Shown here: positions 11,294-60,228 of the stretch, one piece after another
Position numbering within the stretch: the stretch's first letter is position 1
Layout of the letters: each line of letters starts with the position of its first letter
From: Ginglymostoma cirratum
Lineage: Eukaryota
Assembly (NCBI GenBank): GCA_024137785.1
Contig: JAHRHZ010000267.1
Location: forward strand, 14,149,454-14,213,453
DNA: 64,000 nucleotides
Direction: 5' to 3'
Notes under the pieces: model-generated
Told to the model about the DNA's origin: nothing
The model's database searches: none
The model's input: the letters and a program-made list of their open reading frames with translations, nothing else
Position numbers and translations under genes: made by a program

Positions 11294-11624
11294 ATCAGAA
11301 TGGACCTTATTGTCTCTATCTGCTCGTCACAATGAGCATTCAAATGCAATTTTATAGGCTTTCCATTTCAGGGCAGCATACCTTCGTATGATGTTCAGAA
11401 TTATGAGTAGTCCTTTACCTGTCAATTCCTATTGTCTGACAACAAGCAGTACAAACAAAATTGTGCCATGTTCCCATCACTTTGTTTTTTTAATCTTCTA
11501 ATCTCTTTTTTGCCTCTTCCCCTAAAGGCACTACCACACACTTGGGTTCCAGGAACATTTCTCCAAGATCTCACCCAAGTGAACACTTCCTTATATGGAC
11601 TAAGGCAGTGAGTTGCAATAGGCT

Positions 11625-11807
11625 CAGAGATAATAGGAACTGCAGATGCTGGAGAATCCGAGATAACAAGGTGTAGAGCTGGATGAACACAGCAGGCCAA
11701 GCAGCATCATAGGAGCAGGAAGGCTGACATTTCGGGCCTAGACCCTTCATCAGAAAAAATGATGAAGGGTCTAGGCCTGAAACATCAGCCTTCCTGCTCC
11801 TGTGATG
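11625..11807. mobile_element. Penelope-derived fold-back element (family A) with two hammerhead-like cores
   Basis: Inverted arms centred near 11756. The minus arm carries the element 3' terminus; the plus arm is truncated. TSD caataggct (11616-11624) / cagtaggct (11814-11822). Confidence 0.8.
11726..11753 (-). ncRNA. Minimal hammerhead-ribozyme-like motif
   Basis: Minus strand reads CUGAUGA-A-GGGU CUAG GCCC-GAAA-UG-UC: intact CUGAUGA and GAAA boxes, a 4-bp stem II and a GUC triplet. Confidence 0.65.
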
Positions 11808-11937
11808 TATTTTCAGTAGGCTATTGACTGTGCGAGGCTGCATGACAGTGAAAGACAATTACATGGTGATTTGACCAGAAGCACTGACAATCATTTTAAT
11901 CAAATTATGTGGTTGCTATTTACTTTCCCAGTCCATA

Positions 11938-12272
11938 TTTGATCAGAGGATTAGATAGGGTGGGCAGTGAGAGCCTTTTTCCTCGGATGGTGATGGCTAG
12001 CATGAGGGGACATAGCTTTAAACTGAGGGGTGATAGATATAGGACAGATGTCAGAGGTAGGTTCTTTACTCAGAGAGTAATAAAGGCGCGGAATGCCCTG
12101 CCTGCAACAGTAGTAGACTCGCCAACTTTAAGGGCCTTCAAATGGTCATTGGATAAACATAGGGATGATAATGGAATAGTGTAGGTTAGATGGGCTTCAG
12201 ATTGGTTTCACAGGTCGGCGCAACATCGAGGGCCGAAGGGCCTGTACTGAGCTGTAATGTTCTATGTTCTAT
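11938..12272 (+). mobile_element. CR1 (HER1-like) LINE 3' end, 5'-truncated and relatively young
   Basis: Open frame IRGLDRV..ESLFPR...RGHSFKLRGDRYRTDVRGRFFTQRVIKARNALP is the CR1 ORF2 C-terminus, followed by the tail gggccgaagggcctgtactg...ttctatgttctat. Confidence 0.9.
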
Positions 12273-12959: not shown

Positions 12960-14255
12960 GCCAGCTTTGGCTCAGTCATTGGCATGCTTGCCTCGAAGGT
13001 AGTAGATTGTGACTTCGAGTCCCACTTCAGAGATTTGAGCACATAATCCGGGCTGACACTCCAGTGTGTCGAGGGGGCTGCTGGCATGCAATCCTTAGGA
13101 TTAGAGTCTCCTCTCTCAAGTGGGCATAATGAAATATCCCACAAAAAAATTCAAAGACAAGGAGATAAAAAGGGCTGCAGATGCTGGAAGCCAAGTCATT
13201 GAAAACCAATACTGTGAAGTCTCTTCTGAGGATACCCACCTTGAAGGCATTTTTCCTCCTCCCTTCGAGGACAGCTCAGTGAGTCTCTCCCCCACTGCAA
13301 CTGCCTGGTTGTCTCCTCTGCACTGAAGATCTTCAGCCACAATCTGAAGCAGTCTCGATAGTACAGCCCTGTCTCCTTCTTCAGTGTTTGTCTACGCAGC
13401 TAGTTCATCCCCCATGGACTCTAAATAACTTTCAGACCTTCACAGTTTAGTCCCAACCATGACAATCGTTGCCCAAAGTACCTCCAGTGCCCCTGGAAAT
13501 AGTTCTCCCTATGGATTCTCAGCTTCACACTCTCTGCCATGCGTTGACACCTTCTGTCCCTGCATTCGGCATGCCCCAGCTCAGGACCTCCCTCTCCCAG
13601 ACCTGCAGAGGACCTCTACTGTTCTTTGTCCTCAGCAGAGTCCACATCCTCAACAAATGCCTTTTCTCTGTCCTATCGGACATCAAAGACTGCAATTACG
13701 CCAAGCTCTCCCACACTCACCTCCAGACACAGACCTCCTCAACCATTCAGCATCCTAACCTGATCTCTGACATTCTCTGCGATCAGCTCGCATCATTAAC
13801 CATGCGGGTGCTCCAACCACACCTAATTACCATGTGACTGCTGCTATCACCATCTCTCCTACCGTTCCCCCAGCACCACCCCTCTCCCTCTATTTATGTC
13901 TGGGCTTCCCTCCCCTCCCCAGTCCTGACGAAGAGTTTTGGCCCAAAACATTGACTTACATGGTCCTCGGATGCTCTCTGACCTGCTGTGCTTTTCCAGC
14001 CTCGCATCCATTATCTCACAATTCAAAAGCAAGCTGTGAAATTGTTGGCAATATTAATCCATCAGTTGAAATCACTGAAAGAGATTATTTAGTTGTTATC
14101 AGGTTACCGTTTGAAGGACCTTGTTGTGTCCAAATTGGCTTTGTTGTTCCCTAGATTTCACTGTGGCTTAGATTTCCAAAGTGTTTCATTAGATGTAAAA
14201 TGCTTTGGGATGCTCTGAGGTTGCAAAAGGTTCTATTTAAATGCAAGTCTTTCTT
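12960..14255 (+). mobile_element. Deu-domain SINE split by a Penelope insertion (SINE parts 12960-13155 and 14020-14255)
   Basis: tRNA-like head and Deu core lie before 13155; the 3' part, ending atttaaatgcaagtctttctt, resumes at 14020. Confidence 0.7.
13156..14019 (+). mobile_element. Penelope-like pLTR/ORF N-terminal remnant with a degenerate hammerhead
   Basis: A short inverted terminal piece (13156-13195) is followed by decayed ORF-start sequence (SFFSVCLRS*FIPHGL), a pyrimidine tract, CTGACGA...CCCAAAAC near 13925 and a family A-like tail. aattcaaa is duplicated at 13148-13155 and 14020-14027. Confidence 0.65.
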
Positions 14256-14563: not shown

Positions 14564-17500
14564 AGGAAAAAAAGTGCTGAAGGGGATTTGGGAGTGGGAT
14601 TAGAGGTTGCGGAAAGGTAGAAATGCAGGTCAATTAGTTTGGGAAACATAGGAATGTGAAACAAATGCCTATTCGAGAGGGTGAAGGAGAAGTACACAAA
14701 AAGCTATTATAAATAAATAGTAAATAAAATTGCCTAGGCAAGCCTTCTTGTTCAAATAATTACTTAGGTGTTATTGAATTGGATTTTGGAGTACTTACGA
14801 CAGATCTAATGTTAATTCCAAGTAACAGTGAGGTTTGGAACAAGACTGCTGAACCAGCGTTTAAGCACAGTCAGTTCAGTGCAGTCAAGTTCTGTGGAAA
14901 TCAATCCCATCTCCAACTCGATTTAGTCCCAAAACTCATTTCACTTAACACCGTTATCAGCCATCTTAGAAAGCAGGCCTATTCTGAACTGGACTGAAAC
15001 CACAGTCTCAAAGGTAGAAGTGTGTGTTTAAGAACACTGTGATAATGTACTGTTCTGAATCAATTTTCAGCAAGGGCAGTGAATCATATTTAAATATCAA
15101 GCAGTGCTTTCACTAAATGCTTTTCAAGTTCCAGGGCAAATGAAAAATGAGGGATGAAAGCCAAGCTAAACCATAGGTCCTTTCTCCAGAACTAGCCTCA
15201 GCATCTAATTTGGATGCTTGTTTTACCACGGGCACTTATGGTGCAAATTTTGTGCAGCAGCTAAATTAATCGTTTTGTTTTAATTCCTTTCGAGGATGAC
15301 AACTAAATCAAATATGTTAGATTCACAACATAAAGGCCACTCAGCATTTAATTTGAAATACTGTCAGTGTGATTACTTGCTTAAACAAAATCATAGTGCA
15401 ACTGTACTCTTTTCTGAAACAAATTAAAAATCTTTATGGGACTGATGGAGCTTGCAGTGCTAGATGATTTTTATTGCGGTCTCAAAATTAATCGTCATCT
15501 TTTATAAATTGCATGTAAGGAGTGCTGTGGCTTTAAAGAGTGAAGGTGATTACTGATTATAAGAATGGAGCTTCTTATTTACAAAGAAAAATACAGTGGT
15601 GTTCTGTCGTATTAGAGCCTCCTTTTAAAAAGCAGCCAAAAAGACTCATGATTAATCTTGTTTTTATTCATAGTGAGAGCTGAGCTGATATCATCAGGAG
15701 ACCTGGGACCAGGGAAGAATCAGATATTGAACAAACAGTGTAAAGGAAGTGAATTGACCATCAGTTAAAGTGATGAGATTGAGGCATGTCAGCATAATGA
15801 CTGCACCCCCGTTAAGAACTACCTCCTCACACTGTCAGATTCAATAATTCTCCTGTACCTGTCCATTGAGTGTGATGATCAAGGCCGGTACAGTTTTCAT
15901 AGAATAAAGTTAAGAATCAGAGATACGAATGTAAAAACACTGCAGATACTGGAAATCAGAAATAATGCAGGATAAGTTGGAAATGCTGATCAGGTCTGGC
16001 AGCAATTACAATGAGAGGAGCCGAGTTAATGGGCTGGATTTCACCAGCTTTCTGATAACAGACTGGGAAGCCTCACTGTAATAATGGTAGAAGGCATCAT
16101 GAGAGAAATCTGACATCTTCACCCTGCTACAGAATATTCTGAGATGGTTAGGTGGGTAATGAAACCAATGTGTAGTCCAAGTAAGCCCCAATTCCCACAG
16201 TGTCCTCCTGGCAAGGACTCCAGGTAAACCATCATTGTGGGACAGGTGGAGGTGGTGGTCTGTCAGAGGCTCCTCCACTGTCAATGGCTACCCCCACTGC
16301 TCCCAGTTCTGCTGCTGGAGAGTTCACCCCTCCAGTAGCCACGACCTGTCCAGCTAACCATGACACTCTAAGTGAGAAAAATGCTTCCCTTTTCCGAAAA
16401 AGGTGCCCTCCCCTTCCTGCAGTTTCAGCAGTGGCCACCTCTATTGGTGGAGCTGCTGGCTGTTTTAATGGAGGATGAGTGGCGATCACCACAGCGACTA
16501 CTTAAGGGCAGCAAACAGTGAAGTGTTGACCAGAGTCCTGCTGTCCATCTGCACAAGGCCCATCTTTCATTCTTGGCAGGGGCACTGGTTACATTTTGGA
16601 GAATTTTAGGTCAACATATCAGGTATGTGACCTTTTATCAGAAGGTTCTCCAAAAGAGCTCTTAAAAATCTTCAGAGTCCGTTGAACTCTCATAGTTACG
16701 TAATATGACGCGTTTGCAAAATGATATGCAACACAGTCTTTGGATTACAAGAAGAACACTGTTATAATTCTTAATTCAGTTTATATCTAACTGCTAGTGT
16801 TCACTAAGAATGAACAACACTGTTAGCTAAGTAGTACTGTACTGCATTGGTTTAATATGAACAATTTCCTGTATATTTCTGCAAGGTGGCCTTGCAGAAT
16901 ATGACTGCTTTAAACTTTTGACAGGATCGCAGTTTGCTCGAGATTAAACAAGATTCAGCAAAATTTCAGACCATTTGCAGACATAGACACTTCCGACTTA
17001 AATTTTGGGAAGTTAGAGGACTGCTAGACATTTTTTTCGAAATGATCTCAACCGTGACATGGTGCCTTGGGATATTTTAAATACTGCGGAACAGTCACCA
17101 GGTCATTGGTTGTCTGTGACCTAGCACACTAGGAAATGGCAGATTGATGAATGTGAAACATGAAGAAAAGTGGTGATTTTGAGAGCTAAATGGTTTGAAT
17201 ATCTTGCTCCAGAGACATCAGCAATTAGAACGGTCAATAGACATTGTATTGTGAGCATAAATCATCTTGATGCTCGCAATTAGATAAGTAATTATTAAAT
17301 TGCATAGGATATGACATAACCTGTGCTGAATGAAGCAGGGTGGATCAGCATTGGCCTCCAGTTCCATTCCACTCCTGACCCAAGTGGGAAGATGTGGGAG
17401 TGTGGTAGAGCCCAGGGGAAGAAGGCTGTGCGGTATGTGGGGATGAGAGTGAGTCAAAAGGTAAAAATCAGTCTGAAATGTTCAGCCTTGGTGATCCTTT

Positions 17501-17715: not shown

Positions 17716-17960
17716 CAAAAACAAAAGCAAAATACTTTGAATGCTGGAAATCTGAAACACGGAGAATTCTGCAGAAATTCAGCAGATCTGGCAGCAGCTG
17801 TGGAGAGAGAGAAAAGCAAGTGTTAACATTTCGAGTCTGGAATGACTGTTCTTCGGAACTAGTCAGGACTCCAGTTCTTGAGGAAGTCATTCCAGACTTG
17901 AAACATTAACACTGCTTCTCTCTCCATAGATGTTACTGGCGCTGATGACTTCTGTCAACA
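17716..17960. mobile_element. Penelope-derived fold-back element (family B) with two degenerate hammerhead-like cores
   Basis: Inverted arms gtgttaacatttcgagtctggaatgact / agtcattccagacttgaaacattaacac flank a spacer of about 12 nt. Inserted into a reverse-oriented SINE. Confidence 0.75.
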
Positions 17961-24231: not shown

Positions 24232-26130
24232 TGTAGTGATTGTAGCAAGGTCAGCCAGGTGGACCTCGTAGAATATAGTTCCCTGGTTGGGACTGTAAAC
24301 CTGGTCCAATCTGGGAGCTCTGGCTGACAGATATAAACAGAAGTGGCAGAGGTTCTTATCACTCTGACTGCTGGCTGTGAGGGAGCTGGATCAGTGTCAA
24401 GGACTCTCCACATGTCAACAAAGGGCATCTTGGTGATGGGAGTTATTTCAGTGGCAATGGGAGAAAAAAAAATGCTTCAGAAGCAACTCGCTGACAATAG
24501 TCATCTTTGAGTTGGGGTAAGCATTCGTGGCATCATGCCATTATTTGGTAAGCTTGATTCGTTGAATCCTGCTGTCAATGACTGGACCCAGTATGTGGAA
24601 AAAATGTTTTTTTTTTAGCCAAATGACACTGGGGGCGTATGAAAAACAACAAGTAATTCTCTTGATCGCTCGGAGACCACAGCTTTTTCATTCATTTGGA
24701 TCACAACATTTCCTGAGGCACCAGATACGAAACCAATCAAGAGTTGACAGATTTGGTTAAGGTATATTATGACCCCAAGCCACCTTTAATTCTGAAACGC
24801 TATAATTTTTACTCAGCAGTTTGAGAACCAGGGAAATCCTTATGGGGATTTTCGATGAGGTTGATGCCTAATAGAGGCATGTGACTTTGGTTTAAACCTT
24901 AATGAGATGCTGAGAGACCATTTAGTACATGGGATTAATGATGTAACCATGCAAAAGTGCCTACTAACTGAAGCTCAACTGGACTTCAAACAGGCACTAC
25001 AACTGGCTTTATCATTTAAGAACGTGGCAAGTGGAGCTTGTGAGTTACAGGGTATTCCGAGGAAGTGGCCACCCTCGCCAGTATGACTGAGCTTGGGGAA
25101 CACCACTTGAGTGAATGCAATTGCGTAGCCTCACAATCAGGACATATCCTGAACAGAGGAACTCTGGGTCAGCCCACAGCAAAACCCCAAAACAAAGCCA
25201 AGCCTCAGCCAAATGGTTAATATTTTCTTCAGGATCCGGGCCAGCAAACCATTGTCGACGTTAATGGTATGCCCACTGGAGACAACAAACGAGCCCTGCT
25301 AGACCTAAATTGAGAAGAGAACTCATAGGTCGGTATCCAGGAGAGTGCACACCCTGGAAAGCCCACCTGTATCTGGCTTGGAATAATTATATTGCTGAGC
25401 AACATCCAAATCAGAACCAATCAAAATAAATTGTTACAGAGATAGTAAGAACTGCCGATACTGGAGAATCTGAGATAACAAGGTGTAGAGCTGGATGAGG
25501 ACGGCAGGCCAAGCAGCATCACAGGAGCAGGAAAGCTGACATTTTGGGTCTAGACCCTTCTTCAGAAATGATTTCACTTCTGGTTCATACCATCCGAGTA
25601 CCCTTACACCTGCTATTGAAAAACTCACCGGCAGAGAGCCTTCTCTCTCGCACCCTCGGAAATGGTCTCGTAGCCAAGACGTGGCTTTGAGGGAAGTGAA
25701 GAAGCAGCTATCATTGTCTAAAGTGTTGGCACACTGTAATCCCAAGCAAGATCTGGTGCTGACATGCGGTACCTCCTCCGTAGAGTATCGAGGTAGTGTT
25801 GGTTCACAGATGGCCCAGTGGAGAGGAACGCCCAATAGCATATGCTTCCCAGACTTTGGCTGATGCAAATACGCACAAATAGAGAAGGAAGGTTCGGCGA
25901 TCATCTTTAGTATGAGAAAGTTCCACCAATACCTTTACGGATGTAAACAGCTAGTGGTGATGGGGGAAACAAAAGGGCCATCACAACCAGAGCTGAAACC
26001 TTTTCAGACCCAATGAGACCAGATCGCTGTAGAGGACAGCATTTTATTATGGGCAGCAAGAGTGATTGTCCCGAGTCAAGTAAGGTGCTGGACTTTGGCT
26101 GAACACCACCAGGGTCATCCAGGGGTTTAA
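24232..26130 (+). mobile_element. Gypsy (Mag-like) LTR retrotransposon remnant: 5' LTR 24232-24450, then gag and pol fragments
   Basis: TG...CA LTR followed by PBS-like TGGC. gag starts MPLFGKLDSL.PAVNDWTQYVEKM at 24535 and includes EMLRDHLVHGINDVTMQKCLLTEAQLDFKQALQLA. RT/RNase H linker PLHLLLK...W...ALREVKKQL...VLAH.NPK.DLVLTC. Multiple frameshifts and deletions. Confidence 0.8.
25437..25567 (-). mobile_element. Family A hammerhead-bearing Penelope-derived element (single arm) nested in the Gypsy remnant
   Basis: Near-identical to 11625-11755. Minus strand CTGAAGA-A-GGGTCTAGACCC-AAAA-TGTC (GAAA mutated). Confidence 0.8.
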
Positions 26131-31560: not shown

Positions 31561-31562
31561 AG

Positions 31563-31802
31563 TCAAAAACAAAATATTGTGGATGCTGGAGACCTGAGAT
31601 AAAAGCAAAAGAGTGTTGAAGAAACTCAGTAGGTCTGGCAGCATCTGTAGAAAAATAAAATTAGCATTTCTAGTCTTTGAAACTGGTGACTTCACACTTG
31701 CCAAAGATGAATGAGGTGGAATTGAAATGTTAATTGTTCAATGCTGTCTCCACAGATGCTGATAGTTCAGCTGAGTTTCTCCAGCACTTTCTGTTCCTAT
31801 TT
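31563..31802. mobile_element. Old family B fold-back element
   Basis: Inverted arms gaagaaactcagtaggtctggcagcatctgtag / ccacagatgctgatagttcagctgagtttctccagcac; hammerhead cores eroded. Confidence 0.65.
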
Positions 31803-32093: not shown

Positions 32094-32153
32094 CAGAGAT
32101 AAAAAGTACTGCAGATGCTGGAGATCCGAGATAGCAAGGTGTGGGGCTGGATG
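32094..32153 (-). mobile_element. 60-bp 5'-truncated family A insertion inside a decayed CR1 tail
   Basis: Perfect 17-bp TSD aataggatcagttgatt at 32077-32093 and 32154-32170. Confidence 0.85.
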
Positions 32154-33574
32154 AATAGGATCAGTTGATTAACGCTTTTAGACAAAAGATGCAATGGCTC
32201 AATTGGTCTTTCTCTGTGTTGTAAGACTCTATGATATGATTGGTTATCTATTGTCTCACCATGTCATTGGTCTGCTGCAGTGCGCTGTCGATCTGTCTGT
32301 AATTAACACTGACATGTCTGACATCAGGTAACATTTTATGATGATCACATTCTTGAATCTCCCCTGAATTCTCAGTATGCAGCCAAGATATCAGCTGTTT
32401 CATTGTCTTATTGCTTCCATACTTCATTGAATTTGAGTTCAAATTAAGCAAAGGAATGCACTTTCCCTATATCCAGACAATGTTTTAAAACTACATTTTT
32501 CACCTTATTTGATTGCATTTCCCCTTGAAGAATGGTTATTTTAAGACCTAGCTTGCAGAAGATGTCAATTAACGTATATCAAACATTGGACCAACAGGGA
32601 ATGATTCCACTGAAGTTCCCATAGCAAATGTACTGTTGTCCATGGAAATGTCTACATCGGGAAATTACAAATAAAACAAATTCTTGCCTCTGTGCTTCAT
32701 ATATAATTAAGAGCAGCTTAGGAGTATCTTACATAGTTGAAATTTTCCTTACTGTCAGCTCATCTGCGATCACAATGAACAGGTGGGTCAAACCCAGACT
32801 CTCTTGCTATCATTGGCTTACCCCACAATACACAATGCACAGACTAAATCAGTCATTGAGACCAGTTATTACAGATAAGAGAAGGTGGTTTGCTCAGTTG
32901 ACTGGGTAGCTAGATGTGAATTGCATTCAAGCCAACAGCATGGAGGTTGGTCCCTGTTCCAGCTGAGATAGACTTGGGGTTTGGCTCCCTATCCACCTGT
33001 AGTACAAAATGATGATTCAGCAAACAATCGCCAAAGACCTGTCTTTAAACATGGAATTAAAGATGACAAGAAATAACTCATTTTATATGGCAAATTATCT
33101 GAAAGTGATTTCCCATGTGCTATAACATCTCCTTTGGCTGATCCATGGATACTTTCTTAGCAAGCTCACAGCTAACAGCAAACAAAAGCACTCTGGAATT
33201 TGAACCAAAAGCACATTTGCAGTGCTTTCACACTATGCCGACAAGTTGAAATTTTCATGGTAGGTTCAGCCCATTTTCCAGAGCAAAAGTAAAAATATTC
33301 ACTAAGAAACACTTGTAGGAAAACATAGTAATGATGAGAAATTGGAAATGACACAGCTATTGTTGAGATGCAGTGAATATCTTCCGGATGAGCCAAAGTA
33401 TCAAAGCCTTGAGGTCAACAGCACAAGTCCTATAGGAACCATGATATGCATTTTACACAAAATATGGGAAACAAGGGTTTCTTTAAGCTTATCTAAATGT
33501 GATAGGTTAGGTGAGTGAATCCACAGGAATACCAAATTAATTGCAATTATTTCCAGTTTGAATTTCCTATGACC

Positions 33575-33735
33575 ATAGATCATAGAATCATAGAATCCTT
33601 ACAGTGTGGAAACAGGCCCTTCAGCCCAACAAGTCCACACTGACCCTTGGAGCAACCCACCCAGATCCCTAATCTACACATCCCTGAACACTACGGGCAA
33701 TTTAGCATGGCCAATCCACCTAGCCTGCGCATCTT
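33575..33735 (-). mobile_element. HE1-type SINE 3' fragment
   Basis: catagaatcatagaatccttacagtgtggaaacaggccc...gcatggccaatccacctagcctgc is the reverse complement of the 9352 SINE tail. Confidence 0.8.
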
Positions 33736-33769
33736 CTGTGAAGGAATATCGAATCTCTTGAAGGCAATA

Positions 33770-34783: not shown

Positions 34784-34917
34784 TTTAAAAACCGAAAGAA
34801 CTGCGGATGCTGTAAATCAATTCTGAGGAAGGGTCACTTGATCCAAAACGTTAACTCTGACTTCTCTCCACAGATGCAGTCAGACCTGCTGAGCTTTTCC
34901 AGCAATTTCTGTTTTTG
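34784..34917. mobile_element. Family B element: inverted 3' terminus joined to a forward hammerhead arm
   Basis: 11-bp TSD taaaagattta at 34773-34783 and 34918-34928. CTGAGGA-A-GGGTCACTTGATCC-AAAA-CGTT-AAC at 34823. Confidence 0.8.
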
Positions 34918-35293
34918 TAAAAGATTTAGTTGCTACCTTCCTCCCTTTCACCCAAATCTGAAGTCACCGGGATTATTTTTAACCATCCATGCAGTGGATA
35001 ACTATCTATTTAAACCTTTTGCAATGAATGGAAATGGAAAAGAGACAGGATGAAAAGTGGGAAGTCTAGTCCACTGCCACCCAAATGGGACCAGTTGAAA
35101 ATGATCCCTTTGAACCTTGAATCCAAGTGTTTTAATGTAAGATTATTGACACAAAAACACTGAGACAGATACAAGAAAGTCTTGGATATGTTTTTATTTC
35201 TGAATAGTGCTATATAAGCCCAAGTAATACTTTGTGTTATGGTTGCCTTCCAGAAATTTGATCTAGTTCCATGACTGTCCAGTAAAGTGGTAC

Positions 35294-35520
35294 CAAAACC
35301 AGAAATTGCTGGAGGAGCTCAACAGGTCCAGCAGCATCTGTGGAGAGAGAAGAGAGTCAATATTTTGGACCCAGTGACTCTTCTTCAGAATATCTTCTTC
35401 TCTGAACCTGAAATGTTAAATTTGCTTTCTGCACAGATGCTGCCAGACCTGCTGAGTTTCTCCAGCAATTTCTGTTTTTGTTTCAGATTTCCAGCATCCA
35501 CAGCTCTTTGTGTTTTGTTG
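35294..35520. mobile_element. Family B fold-back element (complete terminus on the right arm)
   Basis: cagaaattgctggaggagctcaacaggtccagcagcatctgtg is inverted relative to cacagatgctgccagacctgctgagtttctccagcaatttctg. Confidence 0.78.
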
Positions 35521-37825: not shown

Positions 37826-38300
37826 CATAGAATCATGGAATCTCTATTGTGTGGAAAGAAGCCATTTGGCCCATCGAGGGCACACCGATCCTCCGAAGAA
37901 CATCTCACCCCCTACCCTATCCTCATAACCCTGCATTTACTATGGCTAACCCACCCACCCTGCACATCCTGGGACACTATGGGACAAATTAGTATGGCCA
38001 ATTCACCTAACCTGCACATCTTCGGACTGGAGGAAACCAGAGTACCTGGCAGAAACCTATGTAGGCACTGGGAGAACACACAAATTCCACACAGTTAACA
38101 CTGCTGCCTCACAGCACAAGAGACCTGGGTTCAATTCCAGCTTTGGGTGATTGTCTATATGGAGTTTGCATCGTTCTGCCTGTACCTTTGTGGGTTCCTG
38201 CTGGGAGCTCCAGCTTCCAAAAATGTGCAAGTCAGGTGCATTGGTGATGCTAAATTGTCCCTGGTGACTGGGGATGTGCAGGCTAGGTGAGTTACCCAGG
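37826..38300. mobile_element. HE1-type SINE as an inverted pair (minus 37826-38094, plus 38094-38300)
   Basis: V-domain present in both orientations. Flanked by ggaaatagt (37817-37825) and ggaaatggt (38301-38309). Confidence 0.75.
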
Positions 38301-38534
38301 GGAAATGGTGAAGGGGATAGCTTTAGATTTCATAATGATACAGATCGGCTGATCAGCAGCAAATGGAATTCAATCCAAATAAATGAGGTGATGCACTTTG
38401 GCACGACAAACAAAGCAAGGGAATACATTATGAACGGTAGGATCCTGGGAATCACCAAGGATCGGAGAGACCTTGGCGTGCATGTTCGCTTGTCCACTAA
38501 GGTTGAGGGACAGGTAGATAAAGTGTTTAGCGAG

Positions 38535-38810: not shown

Positions 38811-40692
38811 TGATAATATTTATTAGCTGAAGCTTAAGAGCAGGGGGTTATGCTAGAACTGTATAAAAGGGTGGTTAGGCCAAAGTTAGAGTATTGTGTG
38901 CAATTATGGAATCATAGTATTGGAAGAAAGCGATGCACTGGAGATGGTGCAGATGATATTAACCAGGGTATTGCCTTAAGCTGGAGATTTTTATTTATGA
39001 AGAGAGATTGGAAGGACAGGGGTTGTTATTCTTGGAGCAGAGGAGACTAAGTTGGTACATGATTGAGATGTATCCTGTTATGAACAGGAAAGACAAGACA
39101 GGCAGGAAGGAACTTTTCCTCTTGATGAAGGGATCAGTAGCTGAAGGACTTGGATTTAAGGTAGGGGGCAGGAGGTTTAGATGTGGTGCGAGGAAAAATG
39201 TTTTCACCCAGAAGGCAGTGAGAATCTGGAACTCGCGGCTTGTAAGGGTGGTAAAAGGCAGAAACCCTCATAACATTTAATAAGTATTTAGATGTACACT
39301 TGTGATACTGAGGCACACAAGGCGATGGGCCAAGTACTGGGAAATGGAATTATACTAGCTTGGTGACTGCTTTTGACCAGCGCAAACAGGGTGGCCAGAA
39401 GGGCCCTTTTCTACGCTGTAGACCTCTGACTCTCTCATCCCTTCATTGACATGAAATTCGGAGCTACTGATGAGAATACACAAGCTCAAAAAAACTGCAA
39501 TTGGGAAAAATGTAGGATGAATGAAGACATGCCTGCTGGTTCCAGATTGCTAGCCTTGGGTTGTTTACAGCATCCGCAGTTCTTTTGGTTTTTATTGGAT
39601 TATTAACATGTGCCCACTGGAGCCCTCAATATGGATGAATGTTCAGTCATTAGCTGACTCTATATATATCCAGGGAAATTTATTTGGCATGGATAAATTG
39701 CCTTTCCTAGGTTAGCATTTGATATCTTTTTGAATGGTTCTTCCATTAGCTAATTTTCAGAGACTCCCACCCATTTCCAAGTACAGTGTAATCCTTAATT
39801 TGTGATAATGCATAAGAAAATTTTGCAATTTGAATGTTAGTCCACAGGCTGCATTTTATTATGTCCTGTGAATTTTTTAAAAAAATTATAGAACTTTAGA
39901 GCTGAAATCTAAGACTCCATCATACATCATATATCAATTGGGTTTTTTTAAGTACTTGAGGGTTTCTCATCCTTTAATCCTTTAATCAATTTAACAGATA
40001 TTTTCATTTGCAAATTATTCACAACTTTGCGTTGAACAAGATTTGGAAGATAATTTTCTCACAGTTTATTTACCTTCAGTGGATCAATGAGCAGGGCACT
40101 GCTGTGTTCACATTTACAGTAATCTTAAAGTTAATGATTAAATAGCATTTGAAGTTATTATTTTGATGCAAAAAAATTCTACTTTCAGAGTTTTAAGGTG
40201 GTGTATCACAATGGTAGCATGTTTTAATCTGATTGGCATAAAACATGTGGTCTTTCTAGATTATCCAAAACAACACATTTTTCCTTCACACAATAACTGT
40301 TGTGTGTAACTGGTGACTCACCAGGTTATTAGCAATTTCCAGAGCACTGTTGAAGATCAGACTGGTAATCAGGCAGTTCTAATACTTTTCAGTCAGTTCA
40401 ACAGCTTGGAATGGACAAAATGTCCGTAATCTTGATTGACAAAGCATTTTGGGCACTGCAGTCTGCTTGGATCTGTCTGGAGGAGATTTCACAGGCAACC
40501 ACATTCTTTTACAAAGGAACAATAGGCTGGATTTTATGTATCCTCGCTGGATACATTTGGGGTGGGGTTTATATGTCCTGCTGGTTAGCTCATCACCTTC
40601 CCAATTAGCTCTGAACTCACCACCATAACCGGCTTGGGTGGGTGAGTGGGTGCCCAAATGGTTGCCCTCATATCATATTAGCCTGGATATTA

Positions 40693-40986
40693 TCACAGAA
40701 TCCCTACAGTGTGGAAAAACAGGCCATTCAGCCCATCAAGTGCACACTGACCGTCCGAACAGCACCCCACTCAGACCCATTCCATCCCTGTGACCCTGCA
40801 TTTCCCACGGCCAACCCACCTAACCTGCACGTCTTTGGACTGTGGGAGGAAACTGGAGCACGCGGAGGGAGCCCATGCAGACACGGGGAGAATGTGCAAA
40901 CTGCACACAGACAGTCACCCAAGGGTGGAATGGAAGCTGGGTGCCTGGCGCTGTGAGGCATCAGTGCTAACCACTGATCTACCATG
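40693..40986 (-). mobile_element. HE1-type V-SINE, near full length
   Basis: Reverse complement of the 9352-9666 element; the ORF track shows the same NCLC.VCTFSPCL pseudo-translation. Confidence 0.88.
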
Positions 40987-47769: not shown

Positions 47770-48310
47770 GAGAGATAGTAGGAACTGTAGATGCTCGAGA
47801 GTCTGAGATAACAAGGTGTAGAGCTGGATGAACACAGCAGGCCAAGCAGCATCAGAGNNNNNNNNNNNNNNNNNNNNNNNNNNNNNNNNNNNNNNNNNNN
47901 NNNNNNNNNNNNNNNNNNNNNNNNNNNNNNNNNNNNNNNNNNNNNNNNNNNNNNNNNNNNNNNNNNNNNNNNNNNNNNNNNNNNNNNNNNNNNNNNNNNN
48001 NNNNNNNNNNNNNNNNNNNNNNNNNNNNNNNNNNNNNNNNNNNNNNNNNNNNNNNNNNNNNNNNNNNNNNNNNNNNNNNNNNNNNNNNNNNNNNNNNNNN
48101 NNNNNNNNNNNNNNNNNNNNNNNNNNNNNNNNNNNNNNNNNNNNNNNNNNNNNNNNNNNNNNNNNNNNNNNNNNNNNNNNNNNNNNNNNNNNNNNNNNNN
48201 NNNNNNNNNNNNNNNNNNNNNNNNNNNNNNNNNNNNNNNNNNNNNNNNNNNNNNNNNCTCTGATGCTGCTTGGCCTGCTGTGTTCATCCAGCTCTACACC
48301 TTGTTATCTC
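47770..48310. mobile_element. Family A fold-back element spanning an assembly gap
   Basis: The arms on either side of the gap are exact reverse complements. TSD actttggcaaaagg (47756-47769) / actttggtgaaagg (48312-48325). Confidence 0.75.
47858..48257. other. Assembly gap (400 N)
   Basis: Run of N. Confidence 0.99.
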
Positions 48311-52309: not shown

Positions 52310-54460
52310 AACCATGCTGGGATTTGAATGTTGATGAACTGTCCAGCAGTAATTGTGCATCCCTTATTGACCTTGAGAAGGTGGTTGGAAGCTATTTCTT
52401 GAATCAGTGCGGTCCATGTTGTGTAGATACACTCTTAGTTCTGTTAGAAAAGAAGTTCCAGGAATTTGAGCTAGTGAAGTTGGAAGAATCAATATATATT
52501 TTCAAGGCAGGATAGTATGCATCTTAGGAAGGAACTTGCAGATGGTGCCATTCCCTTGCGTCTGCTGCTCTTGTCCTTCTAGCTAGGAGAAGAAGTGAGT
52601 TTGGAACGCGCTGTCAAAGGAGACTCACTGAGTTGCTGGTGTAGATGGTACATGCTGTTGTCAGTATGTACTGATAGTAGAGAGAATGAATGTTTAAAAT
52701 AGTAGATGGGGTGCCAAACAAACAAATGACTTCGTCTTAGGTGGTGTTGCCCTCCTTGAGTGTTGTTAGAGCTGCACTCACCGAGGCAAGACGGAACTGT
52801 TCCAACAAAGACCTGACATGGGTCTTATCCATGGAGGCATAATATGGAAGACAGAGTTGAATTTATTCATTGCAGAATTTTCAGCCTTGATCTACTCTTA
52901 TAGCCACAGTACTCCTGTGGCTGCTATAGATTCTGGTCATCAGTAACTCCCACATGATGTTGTTGCTGCGGGATTTGTAATGGCATTGAATGTCAAGGGG
53001 ATGGTTAGATTTTCTCCTGTAGGAGATGCCACTATCCAGCACTTGGTTTGATGTGGAAGTTACCTGCTACTTTCAGCCCCAGCTTGAGCATTGCCCAGGT
53101 CTTTCTGGTTGTGGGCCTTAACTACTTCAGTATTTGAGGTACTGAATGCTGTATATTCACCAATGAATATCGCCACTTCTAATCTCATACTGGAAGGAAA
53201 GTGATGCTGCCCTTGCCTTCTTCATGAGATTTTGAATGTGGCAGGAGTTGGAATGATGGATAGCAGTAGCTCGTCAGAGCTTCTGCCTGCCCTTTGAAGG
53301 ACTTATAGAAAGGTAACGGGCATGTAAGTCCCACTATGGTATTCAGTCATTTAGAGGCCGAAATAAAGCAATAGAAAATTGTTGCCTTGGGACACTTCCT
53401 TGATGAAAATGTGTAGTGATACCCTGGGGATTAGGGATGGGCAATTAATATTTGCCTAGCCAGGGATGCCCACATGTTGTGAGTGGGCAAAAAAAATGTT
53501 AGGAACCATATCTATAATGAGATCTGGATCCAAGTGACCCCTGGTGGAACTAAAATGATCATTTGTACATAAGTTATTGATAGCATTCAGTGACATCTTT
53601 CATAATTTCACTGATGAGCAAGAGTAGACTAATAGGGTGGTTCGAATTTGCTCAGCTTTTTATCGGCAGGACAAACTTAAATAATTTTGAGCATTGCTGG
53701 CTAGATGCCAATGTACCTACACTGGAACAGTGTCGCCAACAGCACAGCTAGTTCTTGAGCTCAAATCTTAGATACTTCAGCTACGGTGTTCTTAAGATGC
53801 AAAGCCTTTGTGACATCCAGTGCCACCAACCCCATCTTGATATTATGTGGACTGAATCAAATTAGTTGAAGACTGGCAACAGGAATCTCAAGGGGAGATT
53901 GAGATGGATTATCATCTCCACACGTCTGGCTGATTTTGGTTCCAAACACTTCAGGCTTGTCTTTTGCTAGGTCCCTCAATCGTTGAGGGTGGGGATACTT
54001 GTGGAGCACTCTTTCTTGGTTAGTCTTTTTATTATTCACTATCACGCGTGACTGGTTATGGCAAGGCTTAAATCAGGTCTTTTGGTTGTGAGATCATCGG
54101 AGTCCTGCTTACAGCATGCAGCTTCCACTGTTATAGTCCTGTGTTGTCACTTCACCAAGTTAGCATCTTATTTTTCAGAACGCCTGGCGCTGCTCACGCA
54201 CGCTCCTACACTCTCATCCAATCAGGGTTATCCACTGGCTTACTGATAATGATGCTATGAGGAATTTGCCAGACATGACGATGCAGATTTTTAGTTCAAA
54301 ACAATTCACAGCACTGAATTTATCCTATTTAACACAGTAGTGGCATACACAATATGAATACAGGAGTTTGTCTCCACAGGGACTATGTGGCCACCATTCA
54401 TACCAATGCTACCACAAGCAGACGTGCTTTTGACAAGTAAATTGGTAGGTGAAGTCAACT
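52310..54460 (-). mobile_element. Decayed CR1-clade LINE (reverse), interrupted
   Basis: The reverse complement is colinear with the + strand fragment at 20455-21410 and extends to a 3' end near 52310. Confidence 0.65.
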
Positions 54461-55542
54461 AAATTTTCCCTACATTATGATAGTTATATCTGTTTGGTAG
54501 CTGTCTTTCTACATAACTTCACATCGAAAAGAAGTTTAGCATGCCTTATTTCCATTTGTCACTACATCCTCATCATTCTGAAAACTCCAGAGCAGCTTTT
54601 ATTCATGTGTTGCCTCTACCTTGAAATGAGCCAGGATTAGTCCATGTACATATTTTAATGTCATTCCCCGTACTTACTTCATGAGATTTTGGCAGTATCT
54701 CAGGATTTGAAATGATGGAAAGCAGTAGATAGTAAGCGCTCCTTTAAAGGACTTATGGAAAAGTAACAGGCATGTGAGTCCCAGTGCAGTATTTTTTTCA
54801 TTTAGAGGCCAAAGCAAGAACAAAAGGAATAAAGAGCAATTTGTCTAAGAAGGAGCAACCCACAGAATTCTTAACACACTGATCCTCGTTCTCAACTCAG
54901 CCTCTCCTGTGACCTCCCATGTAGTGCCTGTACCAAATGGTCAAACCACATTATCCAGAAGCTCATAATTTAAATAAAATTCAGGGTCTTGATAAGCCAA
55001 ATGCACTGTTTATCCTCACAATCACAGACTTGTTGAATTAGCAATAAATATTTTGAGCTATTATCAAAAAGTATTTTATGCTTTATAATCTTTTCCGAGC
55101 AGTACAGTTGTGAAGTATTTTGGCTTTAGGCAAGTGTATTCGTAATTTGTCAATATAATACATCTCTGAGATCTTTCTAAGGGATTTTAAAGTATTAAAC
55201 GGTAACCAAGAGTGACTATTTTTGCATATTAATGTAATATCCAGGAGCAGTAGCTCTATGAATATTCTTGACAGCTGCTAAATAAGCAAAATATTTGCAT
55301 CATTCAGCTAATTATTCTGCTTGGACTTACCGTCAAGCGAATCAGAAGAAATGTTTGCTGAAACTTTTACTTCTTTTCAGGGCTGTATTGCATGCTCTTG
55401 CATCAAAAATACTTCTTTTCTAGTGTAATTTTGTTTTAATTAGATATGCCCTATGACTAACTGATAGTTACAGGATTATTCTAATACGATACAAACTGGC
55501 TTCACCTAGCACTTCCTAATGAGTCAACATCACGCTTTCGTT

Positions 55543-55915
55543 AGACATAACAAGAACTGCAGATGCTGGACTCAGAGACAACACAGTGTGGAGCTGGAGG
55601 TACACAGCAGGTCAGGCAGCATCTGAGGAGCAGGAAAGCTGACACTTCGGGCCGAGACCCTGCTTCAGAATTCATTAGGAAGTGCTGGGTGAAGTCAATT
55701 TTTATTGTATTAGAATAATCCCGTAACTATCAGTTAGCCGTAGGGCATGTCTAATTTAAAGAAAAAACAAACATTTACACTGGAATAAAAGTATCTTAGA
55801 TGCAAGAATGTGCAATACAGCCCCGAAAAGAGGTAAAAGTTTTCTGAAGAAAGGTCCTGGCTCGAAACGTCAACTTTCCTGTTCCTCTGCTGCTGCGTGA
55901 CCTGCTGTGTTCCTC
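55543..55915. mobile_element. Family A fold-back element with captured inverted flank (arms 55543-55670 and 55842-55915)
   Basis: Two opposed hammerhead-bearing arms enclose 55672-55842, which is the reverse complement of 55361-55522. Degenerate TSD catcacgctttcgtt / catcatattttgtt. Confidence 0.82.
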
Positions 55916-57873
55916 CATCATATTTTGTTTACCAGTTTTTAAAGTAATGAATCTCCAGTTTATGATAGGTTAGGTATTTCTGTTATGGAAAAGCAAGAAT
56001 GCATTTAGAGAGCGTCGAGATTTTGTTTACAAGAATGCAGCATCTTTGTGTGATCTAAATGATAAGGCAAAAAACCTTGCATTTTGCTTTTCTGCTCAAT
56101 AACCTTAAAAGTACAACACACTGGGCTGGATTTTGCCTCCCCATGAGGTGTGTTTTAGTGGGAGAAATGCAAAATATTATCTTCCCAACCACCTCTAAAT
56201 TTACCCACCATAATGTGGCCTGCCCACCAAAGTTTAGTGACTAATTACAGGACAGTTGAGCTTATTACCAAACTAATTTCACTCTAAAAAGCCCCTTTGT
56301 TTTTTTTTCAGCAATTTAAAAGTTATTTTTCGACAGTTGATCGCTGGCTTTTGCTTCCTTTTTAATATTATGGGGGTAATTTCATTTTCCTGGTGGAGAT
56401 CCTTGCCTGGATAGAACAAGTGCTAACGCGAAATAACATGTTTGGTTTAATTTCAACATGATCATAAAATGGCATGCAGCCAAAGCTCCAATCCACTATT
56501 GCCCATATTAGTTAGCAAGGTCAGAACATGCCTTCAATAATGTGCACATAGTGCACAGGGAGCTGTACAATAAGTCACTACTGAGTATTTTGTCCCTCAA
56601 CCCCAGGTAAAACAGCTACTCTATCTTGTTTCCTTGACATACCATGCCAAGGGATGCAATAAGCGCTGAATTATCTTAATGGTATTCATTGTTATTGAAT
56701 ATCCATGACAGAAATGCCATGTCAATCAGTATTCCCATCTCAGTGAATCTCTGGGGCCCATTCCAAACAGAAAACAGTTTGTTCTGTGCAGTCAACCAAT
56801 TCATCTGGCCACTGGGGAGGAAGACTTAATAAAACATCACAGGAAGTATTAAAGCCTGCTCTCCCCTAAATTCTTTAACAGTTTGCTGCTGCGGAAAAGG
56901 GATCATTTTTACCTTAATGGAATACTGACTGATAAAAGTTTTGAATTTTTTTTTGTGCAACAGAACCTATTCCAGAAGTAAATAGAAGTCTTATAATTGA
57001 CAAATTTATATTGACACTAAAATGCTTAAGGGCAGTAGATAGTAGGTTAATGCATAGATGAGTGCAAAGCTGTTTACAAGTCCCTGTAATAGGACCAAGA
57101 GCATAGTGTTGAACCTTATAGATGGTAAACATCACTGGTCATGGATTTGTGTACATACAATAATGTATATATAAAATATATATTCACATATATTCATATA
57201 TAATACTGCAATTAAGCAAAATGGGTGGCCCTAGCTTGCTGATGAACATCATTCTTTGTGAAACACAATTATTGTACAATTAAACATGAGGAGGATTTAA
57301 ATTCTAGCCCGAGAAAGATTATAAATTCTCTTTGCTTATATAATTAGTTTATTTGTGAGCCAAATCCAGGGTAGTTCGGGGATACAAGTACTGAAGGCGC
57401 TGGTAGATGCCAGAATCAGTTCATTAATTGGCAACAGTGGGAGGTGGGCTTGAAGTCACTCTCTTGGGTTAATTAGTCCAGTTGTGAGCGGCATTTTCTG
57501 AAATCAGTGATCTCTAGCCAGCACTGCTGAGCAGCTGCTTACTGAAAGTGTGTTGTCAAAGTTGCTCTAATATAAAGGGCCAGCATGTGCACCACAGCAG
57601 GAATCATCTGGTTTGTCTACTACTCACCTACTACATGCACATTTAACTCCACAAATCTGCATACTAGTGTCCCAATGCTAATCAGCATAATGACACAAGT
57701 AGTTGTGAACAACTGCCCACACATCGATTCCAAGAACCAGTTGACCTCCTAACAAATTTCGCTGAAAGCAACTGAGCATTTAATCTCAAAAATAAGCATT
57801 TTAAGACAATGACGAAGCAAAATAATCAGGATCCTTGGTGGGACAGGGGTACGGTTTGCACTATGATACTCAT

Positions 57874-60018
57874 CATGATGTGCAAGTGCTGATGTTGGAC
57901 TGGAGTGGACAAAGTCAGTGGTCACAGCACACCAGGTTAGAGTCCAACAGGTTCATTTGAAATCACAAGCTTTCAGAGCATAGCCCCTTTGTCAGGTGGT
58001 GAGAGGGAAGAGTACACAAAACACAAAATTTATAGGCAGAGAAATCAAGGGCGGAGAGATCAAAAGATCATACAAGTGGTGTGACTGGAGTGTCGAATAG
58101 TAAGTCTCTGCAGGTGACCAAGAGTATCACAGTGTGTGTAAAGTGTCAACAGCTGAATAACAAGTGAAGGGATGACCTATAATCTGATTAAATGAGGCAG
58201 TGAGATAATTACAAAGAATTAAAAATAAGGTGGTGCAGGTGACGAACTAAATGACTGGGATAACATGATAGGTATGAGAGTCGTATGCTGAGGGTCTAAC
58301 CAAAGTAGCGAGTAATCCAAAACTACACAAACTAATTAAGGTAGAGAGATCATAGCAATTTACCAAGGTAATGGTGTCAAAACAGGACAGTAAGGAAGGT
58401 TTTGCAAATACAGAACAGTGTGGTGGGTTCACGTGTAATGCAACATGAACTCAAGATCACAGTTGAGGCTGTCTTCATGGGTACGGAACTTAGTTGTCAG
58501 TTTCTGTTCAGCGATTCTGCATTGTTGTGTATCTCGATGCCTGCCTTGGAGGACGCTTACCCGAAGATCGGAGACTGAATGTCATTGACCACTGAAGTGT
58601 TCCCTGACTGGGAGGGAATATCCCTGTCTGGTGATTGTTACACAGTGTCCATTCATCTGTTACCGTAACGTCTGAATGGTCTTTGCCAATATACCATGCT
58701 TCGGGGCATCCTTGCCTGCAGCGTATGAGATAGACAACATTGGCTGAGTCTCATGAGTATCTGCCATGTACATGGTGGGTGGTGTTCCCATGTGTGACAG
58801 TAGTAATTACAACAACCTTCTCCTCCTCAACCCCATCAGAAGACAGACACGGAATACGACCAATAGAGTACCCTTTGCCGTCCAGTACTTGCCCAGAGCG
58901 GAGAGACTACACCATGTTCTTTGCAGCCTTCGACATGTCATCAATGATGACGAACATCTCGCCAAGACCATCCCCACACCTCCATTGCTCGCCTTCAGAC
59001 AACCGCCAAACCTTAAACAGACCATTGATTGCAGCAAACCTCCCAGCCTTCAGGAGAACATCGTCCACAGCACCACACAACCCTGCCAGGGCAGCTTCTG
59101 CAAGAAATGTCAGATCGTCGACATGGATACTACCATCACACGTGGGAATACCACCCACCACGTGCACGGCAGATAGTCACGTGACTCAGCCAATGTTGTC
59201 TATCTCATACGCTGCAGGCAGGGATGCCCCGAAGCATGGTATATTGGCAAAGACCATTCAGACGTTACAGCAACAGATGAATGGACACTGTGTAACAATC
59301 ACCAGACAGGGATGTTCCCTCCCAGTCGGGGAACACTTCAGTGGTCAATGACATTCAGACTCCGATCTTCGGGTAAGCGTCCTCCAAGGCAGGCATCGGG
59401 ATACACAACAATGCAGAATCGCCGAACAGAAACTGACAACTAAGTTCCGTACCCATGAAGACAGCCTCAGCTGTGATCTTGAGTTCGTGTTGCATTACAC
59501 GTGAACCCACCACACTGTTCTGTATCTGCAAAACCTTCCTTACTGTCCTGTTTTGACACCATCACCTTGGTAAATTGCTATGATCTCTCTACCTTAATTA
59601 GTTTGTGTAGTTTTGGATTGCTAGCTACTTTGGTTAGACCCTCAGCGTGCGACTCTCATACCTATCATGTTATCCCAGTCATTTAGTTTGTCACCTGCAC
59701 CACCTTATTTTTAATTCTTTGTAATTATCTCACTGCCTCATTTAATCAGATTATAGGTCATCCCTTTGCTTGCTATTCAGCTGTTGACACTTTACTCACA
59801 CCATCTGATACTCTTGGTCAACTGCAGAAACTTACTATTCGACACTCCAATCACACCAATTGTATTATCTTTCGATCTCTCCGCCCTCGATCTCTCTGCC
59901 CATAAATTCTGTGTCTGTGTGCTCTTCTGTCTCACTTCACATGATGAAGGGGCTACGCTCAGAAAGCTTGTGATTTCAAATAAACCTTTCGGACCATAGC
60001 CCTGGTGTCATGTGATTT
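57874..60018. mobile_element. Penelope-like element (GIY-YIG endonuclease region plus 3' pLTR) as a 2.1-kb inverted repeat
   Basis: Arms about 57923-58805 and 59128-60017 are reverse complements. The + strand encodes RVPFAVQY...PPLLAFRQPPNLKQ...C...CKKC...NVVYLIRC...WYIG...PVGEHF with stops and a frameshift. TSD ctatgatactcat (57861-57873) / ctatgagactgat (60019-60031). Confidence 0.9.
59937..59973 (+). ncRNA. Degenerate minimal hammerhead motif in the Penelope pLTR (mirror copy at 57964-57998, minus strand)
   Basis: UCAC-AUGAUGA-A-GGGGC UAC GCUCA-GAAA-GC-UU-GUGA, with stem I UCAC/GUGA and palindromic AGCU stem III. The mirror copy reads CAC-CUGACAA...GAAA-GCUU-GUG. Confidence 0.6.
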
Positions 60019-60228
60019 CTATGAGACTGATTAGTTTTCACATTCACGGGCACTGACACTGTAAGACCTTCAAACGTGTGTGTCACTGTCTTTGGGAACA
60101 GCAAGTAGGAAAGAGTAGTGCAGGTTATTAACCAAGTCTTTTTTTGACCAGGTCTTGGAACATAAAGATCAAATTACCTGTGTTATTCAAAATAATAATG
60201 TTGTTTCATTATCTTGCTACCTCCCCAG

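Follow-up and report, generated by a model that had tools for sequence, protein, structure and literature searches.

The mirror-image inserts in a 64,000-nucleotide stretch of the Ginglymostoma cirratum genome (the window) are 5′-truncated insertions, that is, the 3′ ends, of autonomous Penelope-like retrotransposons encoding a reverse transcriptase (RT) and a GIY-YIG endonuclease (EN), and their head-to-head arms probably formed by twin priming on one RNA at two start sites. An inverted arm, a tail, a target-site duplication (TSD), and a hammerhead are already published features of Penelope elements; what is new here is evidence on the mechanism only.

Relationship to Penelope-like elements

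In families A and B, the long copies have homology to Penelope open reading frames (ORFs), in line with the origin proposed in the initial annotation. The EN region of family A matches Pfam GIY-YIG at E=0.0012, which is below Pfam's cut-off, long copies of family B match the EN region at 25 to 33%, and family C matches P0004, in which RVT_1 is found at E=5e-9. An ORF for RT followed by a GIY-YIG endonuclease is represented by P0004, by positions 58835-59498 of the window, and by family A and B copies; the broken EN pieces of the window had no match in Pfam, and a PDB search gave no significant match. Further traits shared with Penelope-like elements are an optional 30- to 40-bp tail on a single end, an inverted 5′-truncated copy with a TSD, and a partial tandem leading from an upstream pLTR into the ORF, of which the L200 tail running into the ORF start is the single clear case. 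The 3′ ends are bimodal, lying at 0 and about −34 in families A and B and at about −40 in family C. Judging from the domain order, the elements may belong to the Penelope/Poseidon clade.

MITEs, for which equal terminal inverted repeats to both ends and a uniform length were required, were rejected: the arms are unequal in length and at both ends, and they have homology to a retroelement. The earlier view of the inserts as RT products rather than MITEs was thus sound, and in annotation the short palindromes belong under Penelope 3′ ends, not under MITEs or new ribozyme elements.

Insertions in the window

The initial annotation had assigned one fold-back layout to nine named places. Penelope-end sequence indeed lies head to head at all nine (Table 1), but 13156 and 34784 are not fold-backs, as the inverted piece there is a tail only and scarcely overlaps the other arm. 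A full-tail arm is paired with a tail-less arm at five loci (31565-31795, 34787-34918, 35294-35515, 47771-48310, and 57874-60020); three second arms fall further short of the end, by 80 nt at 11625, 79 nt at 17716, and 52 nt at 55543. The claim of one TSD per pair held in part: among the seven short pairs scored, a TSD score of 7 was reached at 11625, 34787, and 47771 and not at 17716, 31565, 35294, and 55543, and two further TSDs were recognized by eye, at 13156 and 57874. A ribozyme motif on both strands had also been proposed; the hammerhead core region occupies both strands only at 11625, 17716, 55543, and 57874, and none of the window copies passed the strict hammerhead descriptor.

Several loci have additional structure. 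The center of the 47770 locus is a gap of 400 N, which hides the arm starts, and a 53-nt identity there is possibly an assembly artifact. At 55543, the segment between the arms (55672-55842) is an inverted copy of the host flank at 55361-55522. The first 322 nt of the tail-less arm of the 57874 element (58806-59127) are absent from its tail arm, scoring 22 against that arm and 359 against family C.

Table 1. Penelope-related features of the window
Feature	Position	Strand	Remarks
Family A arm, full tail, start 3 nt before CUGA	11625..11756	-	95% to subfamily A1 yardstick
Family A second arm, hammerhead core only	11760..11807	+	
TSD of 11625 pair	11613-11624 / 11811-11822		10/12
Inverted tail alone, old family A	13161..13192	-	Read by eye
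Old family A copy, internally deleted	13211..14017	+	blastn 69% to L200 ORF start, 77-82% to family A end; ORF 5′ region (13211-13653), then 3′ UTR, decayed hammerhead, tail-less end
TSD of 13156 locus	about 13146-13161 / 14018-14033		13/16, by eye
Family B-like pair, decayed	17716..17932		Tail arm 17716-17860 (-), second arm 17872-17932 (+); TSD not found
Family B pair	31565..31795		Tail arm 31565-31655 (-), tail-less arm 31742-31795 (+); no recognizable hammerhead, no scored TSD
Family B inverted tail alone	34787..34819	-	97% to B1 tail; single 14-bp TSD (13/14) around this tail plus the following body
Family B body, hammerhead start to tail boundary	34816..34918	+	
Family B pair	35294..35515		Tail-less arm 35294-35390 (-), tail arm 35399-35515 (+); TSD not found
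Family A pair	47771..48310		Tail arm (-), tail-less arm (+); 14-bp TSD (12/14)
Old family A pair	55543..55917		
Family C tail-bearing arm	57874..58805	-	88% to family C yardstick
Family C tail-less arm	58806..60020	+	
TSD of 57874 element	57861-57870 / 60019-60028		9/10, by eye
Penelope ORF C-terminal part (linker + GIY-YIG-type endonuclease), broken	58835..59498	+	tblastn 74% and 63% to P0004 residues 422-642; one stop, one frameshift
Single truncated family A arm with tail	32095..32155	-	Perfect 15-bp TSD
Single family A arm with tail, start 5 nt before CUGA	25437..25570	-	TSD not found
Single tail-less family B fragment	4479..4535	-	
Single family B fragment	15939..16004	-	
Single family B tail	39564..39593	+	

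Pair layout and target-site duplications

Across 811 kb of called bases from the same genome, we counted 67 head-to-head pairs, among them 44 of tail/tail-less, one of tail/tail, and four of tail-less/tail-less composition. One shared TSD (score ≥7), mostly of 12 to 15 bp, encloses 34 of the 44 tail/tail-less pairs, a score reached by chance in 2.7% of 600 shuffled flank pairs; the other 10 had no clear TSD. Each pair can thus be read as one insertion event, as originally suggested. Ends also occur alone inside a TSD (8/45 tail-less and 7/47 tailed singles), and there are insertions consisting of a tail only plus a body, such as the one at 34784.

The two arms of a pair are not nested in a fixed order. 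The 29 gap-free tail/tail-less pairs with a TSD divide into 13 whose tail-less arm extends >10 nt farther 5′, 8 whose tail arm does so, and 8 with equal arms; in the 10 youngest pairs, the tail-less arm is the longer in 5 and the tail arm in 2. Perfect palindromes often have central assembly gaps, and because gap-centered palindromes (5/44) were dropped, the gap-free set is biased to short overlaps. Another 30 young loci were kept out of the counts because their 5′ extension broke at repeats and many had gapped centers; they are the same in kind as the counted pairs. An assembly artifact was rejected for the gap-free pairs with unequal arms and TSDs.

The initial annotation had the cDNA snap back, and self-priming, in which one strand folds back and copies itself into the second arm, was also proposed in PMC3846280. 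It would explain why the arms of one pair share one template, is compatible with the equal starts and with the longer tail arms, and could leave the few-base overlap seen at some junctions. We nevertheless regard it as quite unlikely, and as already contradicted, barring frequent central deletions after insertion: the tail-less arm is often the longer at its 5′ end and carries sequence that is missing from the tail arm, the two parts of tail-only plus body insertions scarcely overlap, the 57874 element has unique sequence on both arms, inverted host flank occupies the center of 55543, and tail-less ends are inserted alone with a TSD. An antisense version fails on the eight pairs with a longer tail arm.

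A single template is also suggested by the variants. Non-consensus bases common to both arms occur at 0.023 per site in 26 pairs, against 0.011 when permuted (0/2,000 permutations as high). Where both arms reach the start zone, both stop in 14 pairs and both pass in 5, with 1 mixed pair where 8 were expected (p=0.0002). Unless both RNAs came from one source locus, this concordance and the excess of shared variants speak against two-ended priming by a protein dimer carrying two RNA molecules, one per target end. Such a dimer would make strand displacement unnecessary, and the anole protein has been predicted to dimerize (PMC11167929); on balance we consider two RNAs unlikely.

The start of the short arms

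The arms start 3 to 5 nt before CUGA, so that the larger sample bears out a start just 5′ of the motif; the peak is not at the cleavage site. Family A3, with 30,099 exact hammerhead cores and many stop-free ORF matches, is young and therefore a good natural data set; the upstream match ends between −3 and −7 in ∼45% of these cores. To place the arm starts at the hammerhead's first bases fits as a description and leaves the cause unsettled. Likely, the short copies derive from RNA with a 5′ end 3 to 5 nt before the hammerhead core, and whether the peak marks a transcription start in the pLTR is close to a toss-up. Long A and B copies with differing spacers have TATA-like hexamers ∼30 nt upstream of the start and an initiator-like CA at it.

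As for the start peak only, it might instead reflect the hammerhead's own 5′ boundary, either an RNA end protected by fold or protein or a stop of the enzyme, a reading that we hold as a tentative second choice. In families A, B, and C the starts fall on the 5′ strand of stem I, and family D has a small excess at −6..0 despite a TATA-like box at −48, with no peak 30 nt downstream of that box, so that the TATA+30 prediction was unconfirmed there. Against this boundary reading stand the TATA-like hexamers and the initiator-like CA, as well as the weakness of the family D peak, with 7/90 copies (∼8%) versus 45 to 60% in A and B.

In the unstranded poly(A) RNA reads X23, a depth step mirrors the genomic copies, with no start or end peak; RNA read set X24 comprised 19 reads. 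Opposite-strand joints near −4..+1 in X23 fit head-to-head junctions, and library fold-backs could produce them too. A splice acceptor was rejected as the cause of the peak: B and old A have an AG, young A and C do not, and there is no conserved upstream exon. An extra G before the short arms, as a cap signature, was not enriched.

So sharp a start would also suit short units that spread from master copies of their own as non-autonomous, SINE- or retrozyme-like families; the D. virilis element has an internal promoter (PMC2377424), so that short copies might be transcribed. We find this improbable: the 48 short and 30 long copies of family A are intermingled in all three subfamilies. The family A tree, poorly resolved with its 89 columns, has 21 label changes against a shuffled mean of 24.3 (44/500 shuffles as low) and two groups in which short and long rows are identical, and at this low resolution the short units form no lineage distinct from their autonomous partner. 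With identical ends on ORF-bearing copies, and with both kinds intermixed, the short units do not look like separate families, and their description as tiny non-autonomous elements is not supported.

The hammerhead motif

The motif is a minimal type I hammerhead with the core CUGANGA / GAAA / UH, stems I and II, and a palindromic stem III, and the larger sample agrees with the proposed combination of this core with ACGU or AGCU in stem III. The descriptor matched 42 times in the 811 kb and never in five simulated sequences. In 63 copies, 88% of stem cells are paired, compared with 28 to 53% after swapping stems between the four families, across which compensatory changes affect both sides of stems I and II; the covariation asked of the motif is therefore present. 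The base pairs were counted on motif-anchored rows because the MAFFT hammerhead alignment was out of register for family C. Rfam has no model matching these minimal hammerheads, and neither the window nor a pristine young copy gave a match to a hammerhead family. Only 1 of 126 family A arms starts at the predicted cleavage site, which is no excess, and the 6 of 93 in family B are not above adjoining zones. If the ribozyme-bounded units first envisaged are taken to be bounded by cleavage, the family A starts do not support them; the ribozyme would be a passenger rather than excise the unit.

A proposed twin-priming model

We favor twin priming because the tail-less arm often reaches beyond the tail arm, ends occur singly, and the arms share a TSD. 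In the order of priming, displacement, and repair that we infer, the element endonuclease would cut both target strands 12 to 15 bp apart, and each freed target 3′ end would serve as a primer on the same RNA, with reverse transcription starting at the outer end of the ∼34-nt tail from one and at its inner end from the other. Each cDNA would extend a variable distance toward the RNA 5′ end; where they overlap, one would displace the other, and repair would join the two free ends, often with filler bases. A stricter, programmed form, to which we give as much credence as doubt, has one RNA with two fixed starts 34 nt apart, one per end of a 12- to 15-bp staggered cut; the tail would then be the inter-primer spacer, and the very numerous solo hammerheads of animal genomes would be copies of the transcript 5′ end from start site to tail.

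Non-nested arms could also result from central deletion after insertion, and mixed sense and antisense self-priming could give either asymmetry. The shared variants may stem from the timing of subfamilies or from conversion between the arms at a later stage.

A Penelope protein assayed in vitro cuts and extends each of the two strands and starts at two tail-defining sites (PMC11167929). The origin of the Penelope inverted repeats and of the one-sided tail is called unresolved in PMC8557442 and PMC11167929. By our counts, twin priming is to be preferred to the self-priming idea in the literature, and its predictions are testable in the existing in vitro system.

Comparison with known systems

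The inserts share with endonuclease-bearing Penelope-like elements (PMC3846280, PMC8557442, PMC2377424) the head-to-head inverted copy, the one-end tail, the one TSD, the RT and GIY-YIG ORF, and TATA and initiator-like motifs in the pLTR. They differ from the rotifer elements in a TSD of 12 to 15 bp rather than 8 to 10 bp, and tens of thousands of copies permit counts, which oppose the self-priming model of PMC3846280. With the anole Poseidon element PAc in vitro (PMC11167929) they have in common two reverse-transcription start sites bounding the tail; PAc also has a hammerhead in its pLTR, which is not needed for insertion. In the parts consulted, inverted insertions are not derived from the two sites, and the long ORF of family A starts downstream of the tail in L200, not inside the hammerhead, unlike in PAc.

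The minimal type I hammerheads of metazoan Penelope (PMC4209133) have the same core, extra base after A9, G-C first pair of stem II, 4-bp stem I, and palindromic stem III, with nothing essential different in the parts consulted; opposite-strand motif pairs 100 to 700 bp apart and many solo motifs are already reported there. L1 twin priming (Ostertag and Kazazian 2001, as described in PMC2246262) likewise has both sides of the break priming on one RNA, with an inverted part within one insertion. The present elements have a fixed second site, ∼34 nt away from the first, and in most cases a palindrome results from the overlap of their arms. The L1 site, by contrast, is variable and the overlap small. 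Finally, non-LTR retrozymes (bioRxiv 10.64898/2026.07.22.740005) are also short hammerhead-bearing sequences related to Penelope pLTRs, yet they form head-to-tail tandem arrays, whereas the units listed here are head-to-head pairs or TSD-bearing singles.

Paired arms are single insertions

To the window we added 1.4 Mb (200 kb adjoining it plus 24 arbitrarily placed 50-kb blocks), giving a sample of 1,464,000 bases, 811,229 of them called and the remainder N. Blast against a reference sequence for each Penelope family matched 154 pieces of family A, 128 of B and 20 of C. Counting 5′ ends from the C of CUGA and 3′ ends from the element end, the pieces showed two 3′-end clusters, one at the full end and one ∼34 nt short of it. 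Among 67 head-to-head pairs (arms <450 nt apart), 44 combined one arm bearing this ∼34-nt tail with an opposite-facing tail-less arm; one had two tails, four had none and 18 included an arm with another end. Target-site duplications (TSDs; score of at least 7), mostly 12 to 15 bp long, flank 43/67 pairs overall and 34/44 tail/tail-less pairs, compared with 2.7% of 600 shuffled flank pairs. Since TSDs are shared, and since all six long insertions with a TSD (1.5 to 3.1 kb) are tail/tail-less, each pair is one insertion event.

The initial annotation had proposed a single layout for nine window sites. Head-to-head Penelope ends are indeed present at all nine, yet with more variety than claimed: five hold a clean tail/tail-less pair, at three the second arm stops early, and at 13156 and 34784 only the tail is inverted, with tail and body hardly overlapping at 34784 within one 14-bp TSD. 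A common TSD around both arms was recovered for three of seven short window pairs at threshold and at two further sites by eye, but not for the remainder. The 57874 element is a broken, truncated family C member, about 70% identical to P0004, a Penelope protein with an RVT_1 match that resembles family C; named homologues of the window protein come from sharks. At 55543, 162 nt of host flank recur as an inverted copy between the arms, as would be expected from templated repair joining two free ends, at a site lacking a TSD that would confirm one event. Many young palindromic insertions carry 400-N gaps at their centre and thus break the assembly.

Formation of the second arm

If cDNA snapped back on itself, as first suggested, the tail-less arm must lie within the tail arm. 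Of the 44 tail/tail-less pairs, 29 carry a TSD and are free of a gap at the centre. In 13 of these it is the tail-less arm that extends more towards 5′, in 8 it is the tail arm, and in the other 8 the two 5′ ends differ by no more than 10 nt (17, 11 and 11 of 39 without the TSD filter), counts from which gapped perfect palindromes are lost. Together with 322 nt of family C sequence at 57874, present in the tail-less arm and missing from the tail arm, this argues against snap-back. Deletion after insertion is a caveat as a source of non-nested arms, and a mixture of self-priming routes, self-priming being the mechanism proposed in PMC3846280, is a possible origin of the asymmetry.

The two arms of a pair come from one template, because they have excess variants in common (0.023 vs 0.011 per site; 26 pairs) and agree on whether they stop at the start zone (both stop in 14 pairs, both pass in 5, mixed in 1; p=0.0002). 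Single insertions with a TSD occur for both tailed and tail-less ends. Two primers on one RNA would yield both arms, and fit all arm observations. Biochemistry of an anole protein agrees: in PMC11167929, both strands are cut and extended, two start sites bound the tail, and the ribozyme is not needed. At one locus, L188, the filler at the arm junction consists of about seven telomere-like TAACCC units.

Arm starts

Arms were said to begin just 5′ of CUGA, and this held among arms with a defined 3′ end: 47/78 A arms reaching the −7 to +2 zone stop there, as do 35/50 B arms. The A stop rate is 0.060 per base in this zone, 0.020 just inside and 0.001 to 0.007 in other zones. Exact matches to subfamily A3 across the 4.36-Gb assembly fall from 30,099 for the core to 27,672 (to −3), 21,073 (−4), 18,644 (−5), 16,461 (−7) and 14,987 (−14). 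Self-cleavage was rejected as the setter of this boundary, and with it the idea of units bounded by ribozyme cleavage, since only 1/126 A and 6/93 B starts lie at the predicted cleavage site (+28 to +30).

In long A and B copies a TATA-like hexamer precedes the start by ∼30 nt, with CA at the start itself; in long C copies such a hexamer lies 32 to 37 nt upstream. PMC3846280 also describes TATA plus initiator in a pLTR. It is about an even bet that the peak marks a transcription start. If a transcript begins there and has hammerhead and tail at both ends, its 5′ end would give rise to short copies and its 3′ end to long ones. Counting against a transcription start is family D (711 exact cores, 90 examined), with a TATA-like box at −48, 7/90 starts at −6 to 0, and no peak near −18 in these 90; nor did unstranded poly(A) RNA reads show a peak at the start. 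A structure-defined end is a somewhat less probable reading.

Short units and the hammerhead

Short units were taken for tiny non-autonomous families. They share ends with long copies reaching >2.2 kb upstream into reverse transcriptase and endonuclease homology (A) or into endonuclease homology (B), and every A subfamily holds both kinds; the tree, built from 48 short plus 30 long copies of A, has 21 label changes (shuffled mean 24.3; 44/500 shuffles as low), with weak resolution from 89 columns. The short units thus look like by-products of autonomous elements rather than separate families; internally deleted A copies retaining the ORF start and 3′ end are candidates for true non-autonomous derivatives. 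A3 is young, as nearly all of the best 148 matches to a 257-residue piece are stop-free and its long copies, with the same inverted arms, are mostly 98 to 100% identical to the reference at the 3′ end. In L200 the tail leads directly into the ORF start, a known partial tandem. The A3 ORF (L200, L179, L197) has a long N-terminal extension with Pro/Thr/Ala/Asp-rich repeats, variable in number, ahead of the conserved part.

The predicted hammerhead stood up at sequence level. A minimal descriptor, which itself selects for the core, gave 42 matches in the sample vs 0 in five simulated sequences, and in 63 intact-core copies pairing holds in 88% of the cells of stems I and II. Representative stems pair at 88% within a family and 28 to 53% between families, and both sides of the stems vary: the first stem I pair is U-A, C-G or A-U, the third of stem II G-C, A-U or U-A. 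Stem III is ACGU or AGCU. The strict descriptor was passed by no window copy, and the motif claimed for both strands has its core region on both at four window sites only. In family D stem II is longer and the start peak only weak, while both kinds of 3′ end and inverted partners occur as in the other families.

Genomic setting

The elements may sit in a long intron of a protocadherin-like gene: a 230-codon frame with the motif HSDRCWMP resembles a last protocadherin exon, and has no significant Pfam match. A dispersed ∼300-bp repeat is probably the shark HE1 SINE.

Coordinates of features in the window and sampled loci
Feature	Location	Strand
Fourth hammerhead-bearing Penelope family (D)	L110:2329-2370; L201-L290	− (L110)
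Inverted duplicate of host flank between two Penelope arms	window 55361-55522 and 55672-55842	
Internally deleted A copies	window 13211-14017; L077 9529-9900	
TAACCC units at arm junction	L188, about 360-400	element orientation
Central 400-N gap (example)	window 47858-48257	
230-codon open frame	window 60132-60824	+
Dispersed ∼300-bp repeat	window 9352-9666, 33575-33746, 37821-38307, 40692-40980	
Direct repeat, ∼140 bp, 75% identical, unrelated to Penelope families	window 53220-53362 and 54677-54813	

Relation to known elements

No paper on these shark families was found in a search with most subscription journals, Repbase and Dfam outside its range. The elements belong to a known kind: PMC3846280 and PMC8557442 describe inverted pLTRs, one-sided tails and TSDs, the latter paper leaving the mechanism open, and it is the evidence on mechanism that is of interest here. 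Twin priming, in which both target ends start reverse transcription on one RNA, is known for L1, as described in PMC2246262; papers checked for twin priming in Penelope elements deal with L1 or telomerase RNA. The predicted hammerheads match the minimal hammerheads of PMC4209133, where opposite-strand pairs were already reported.
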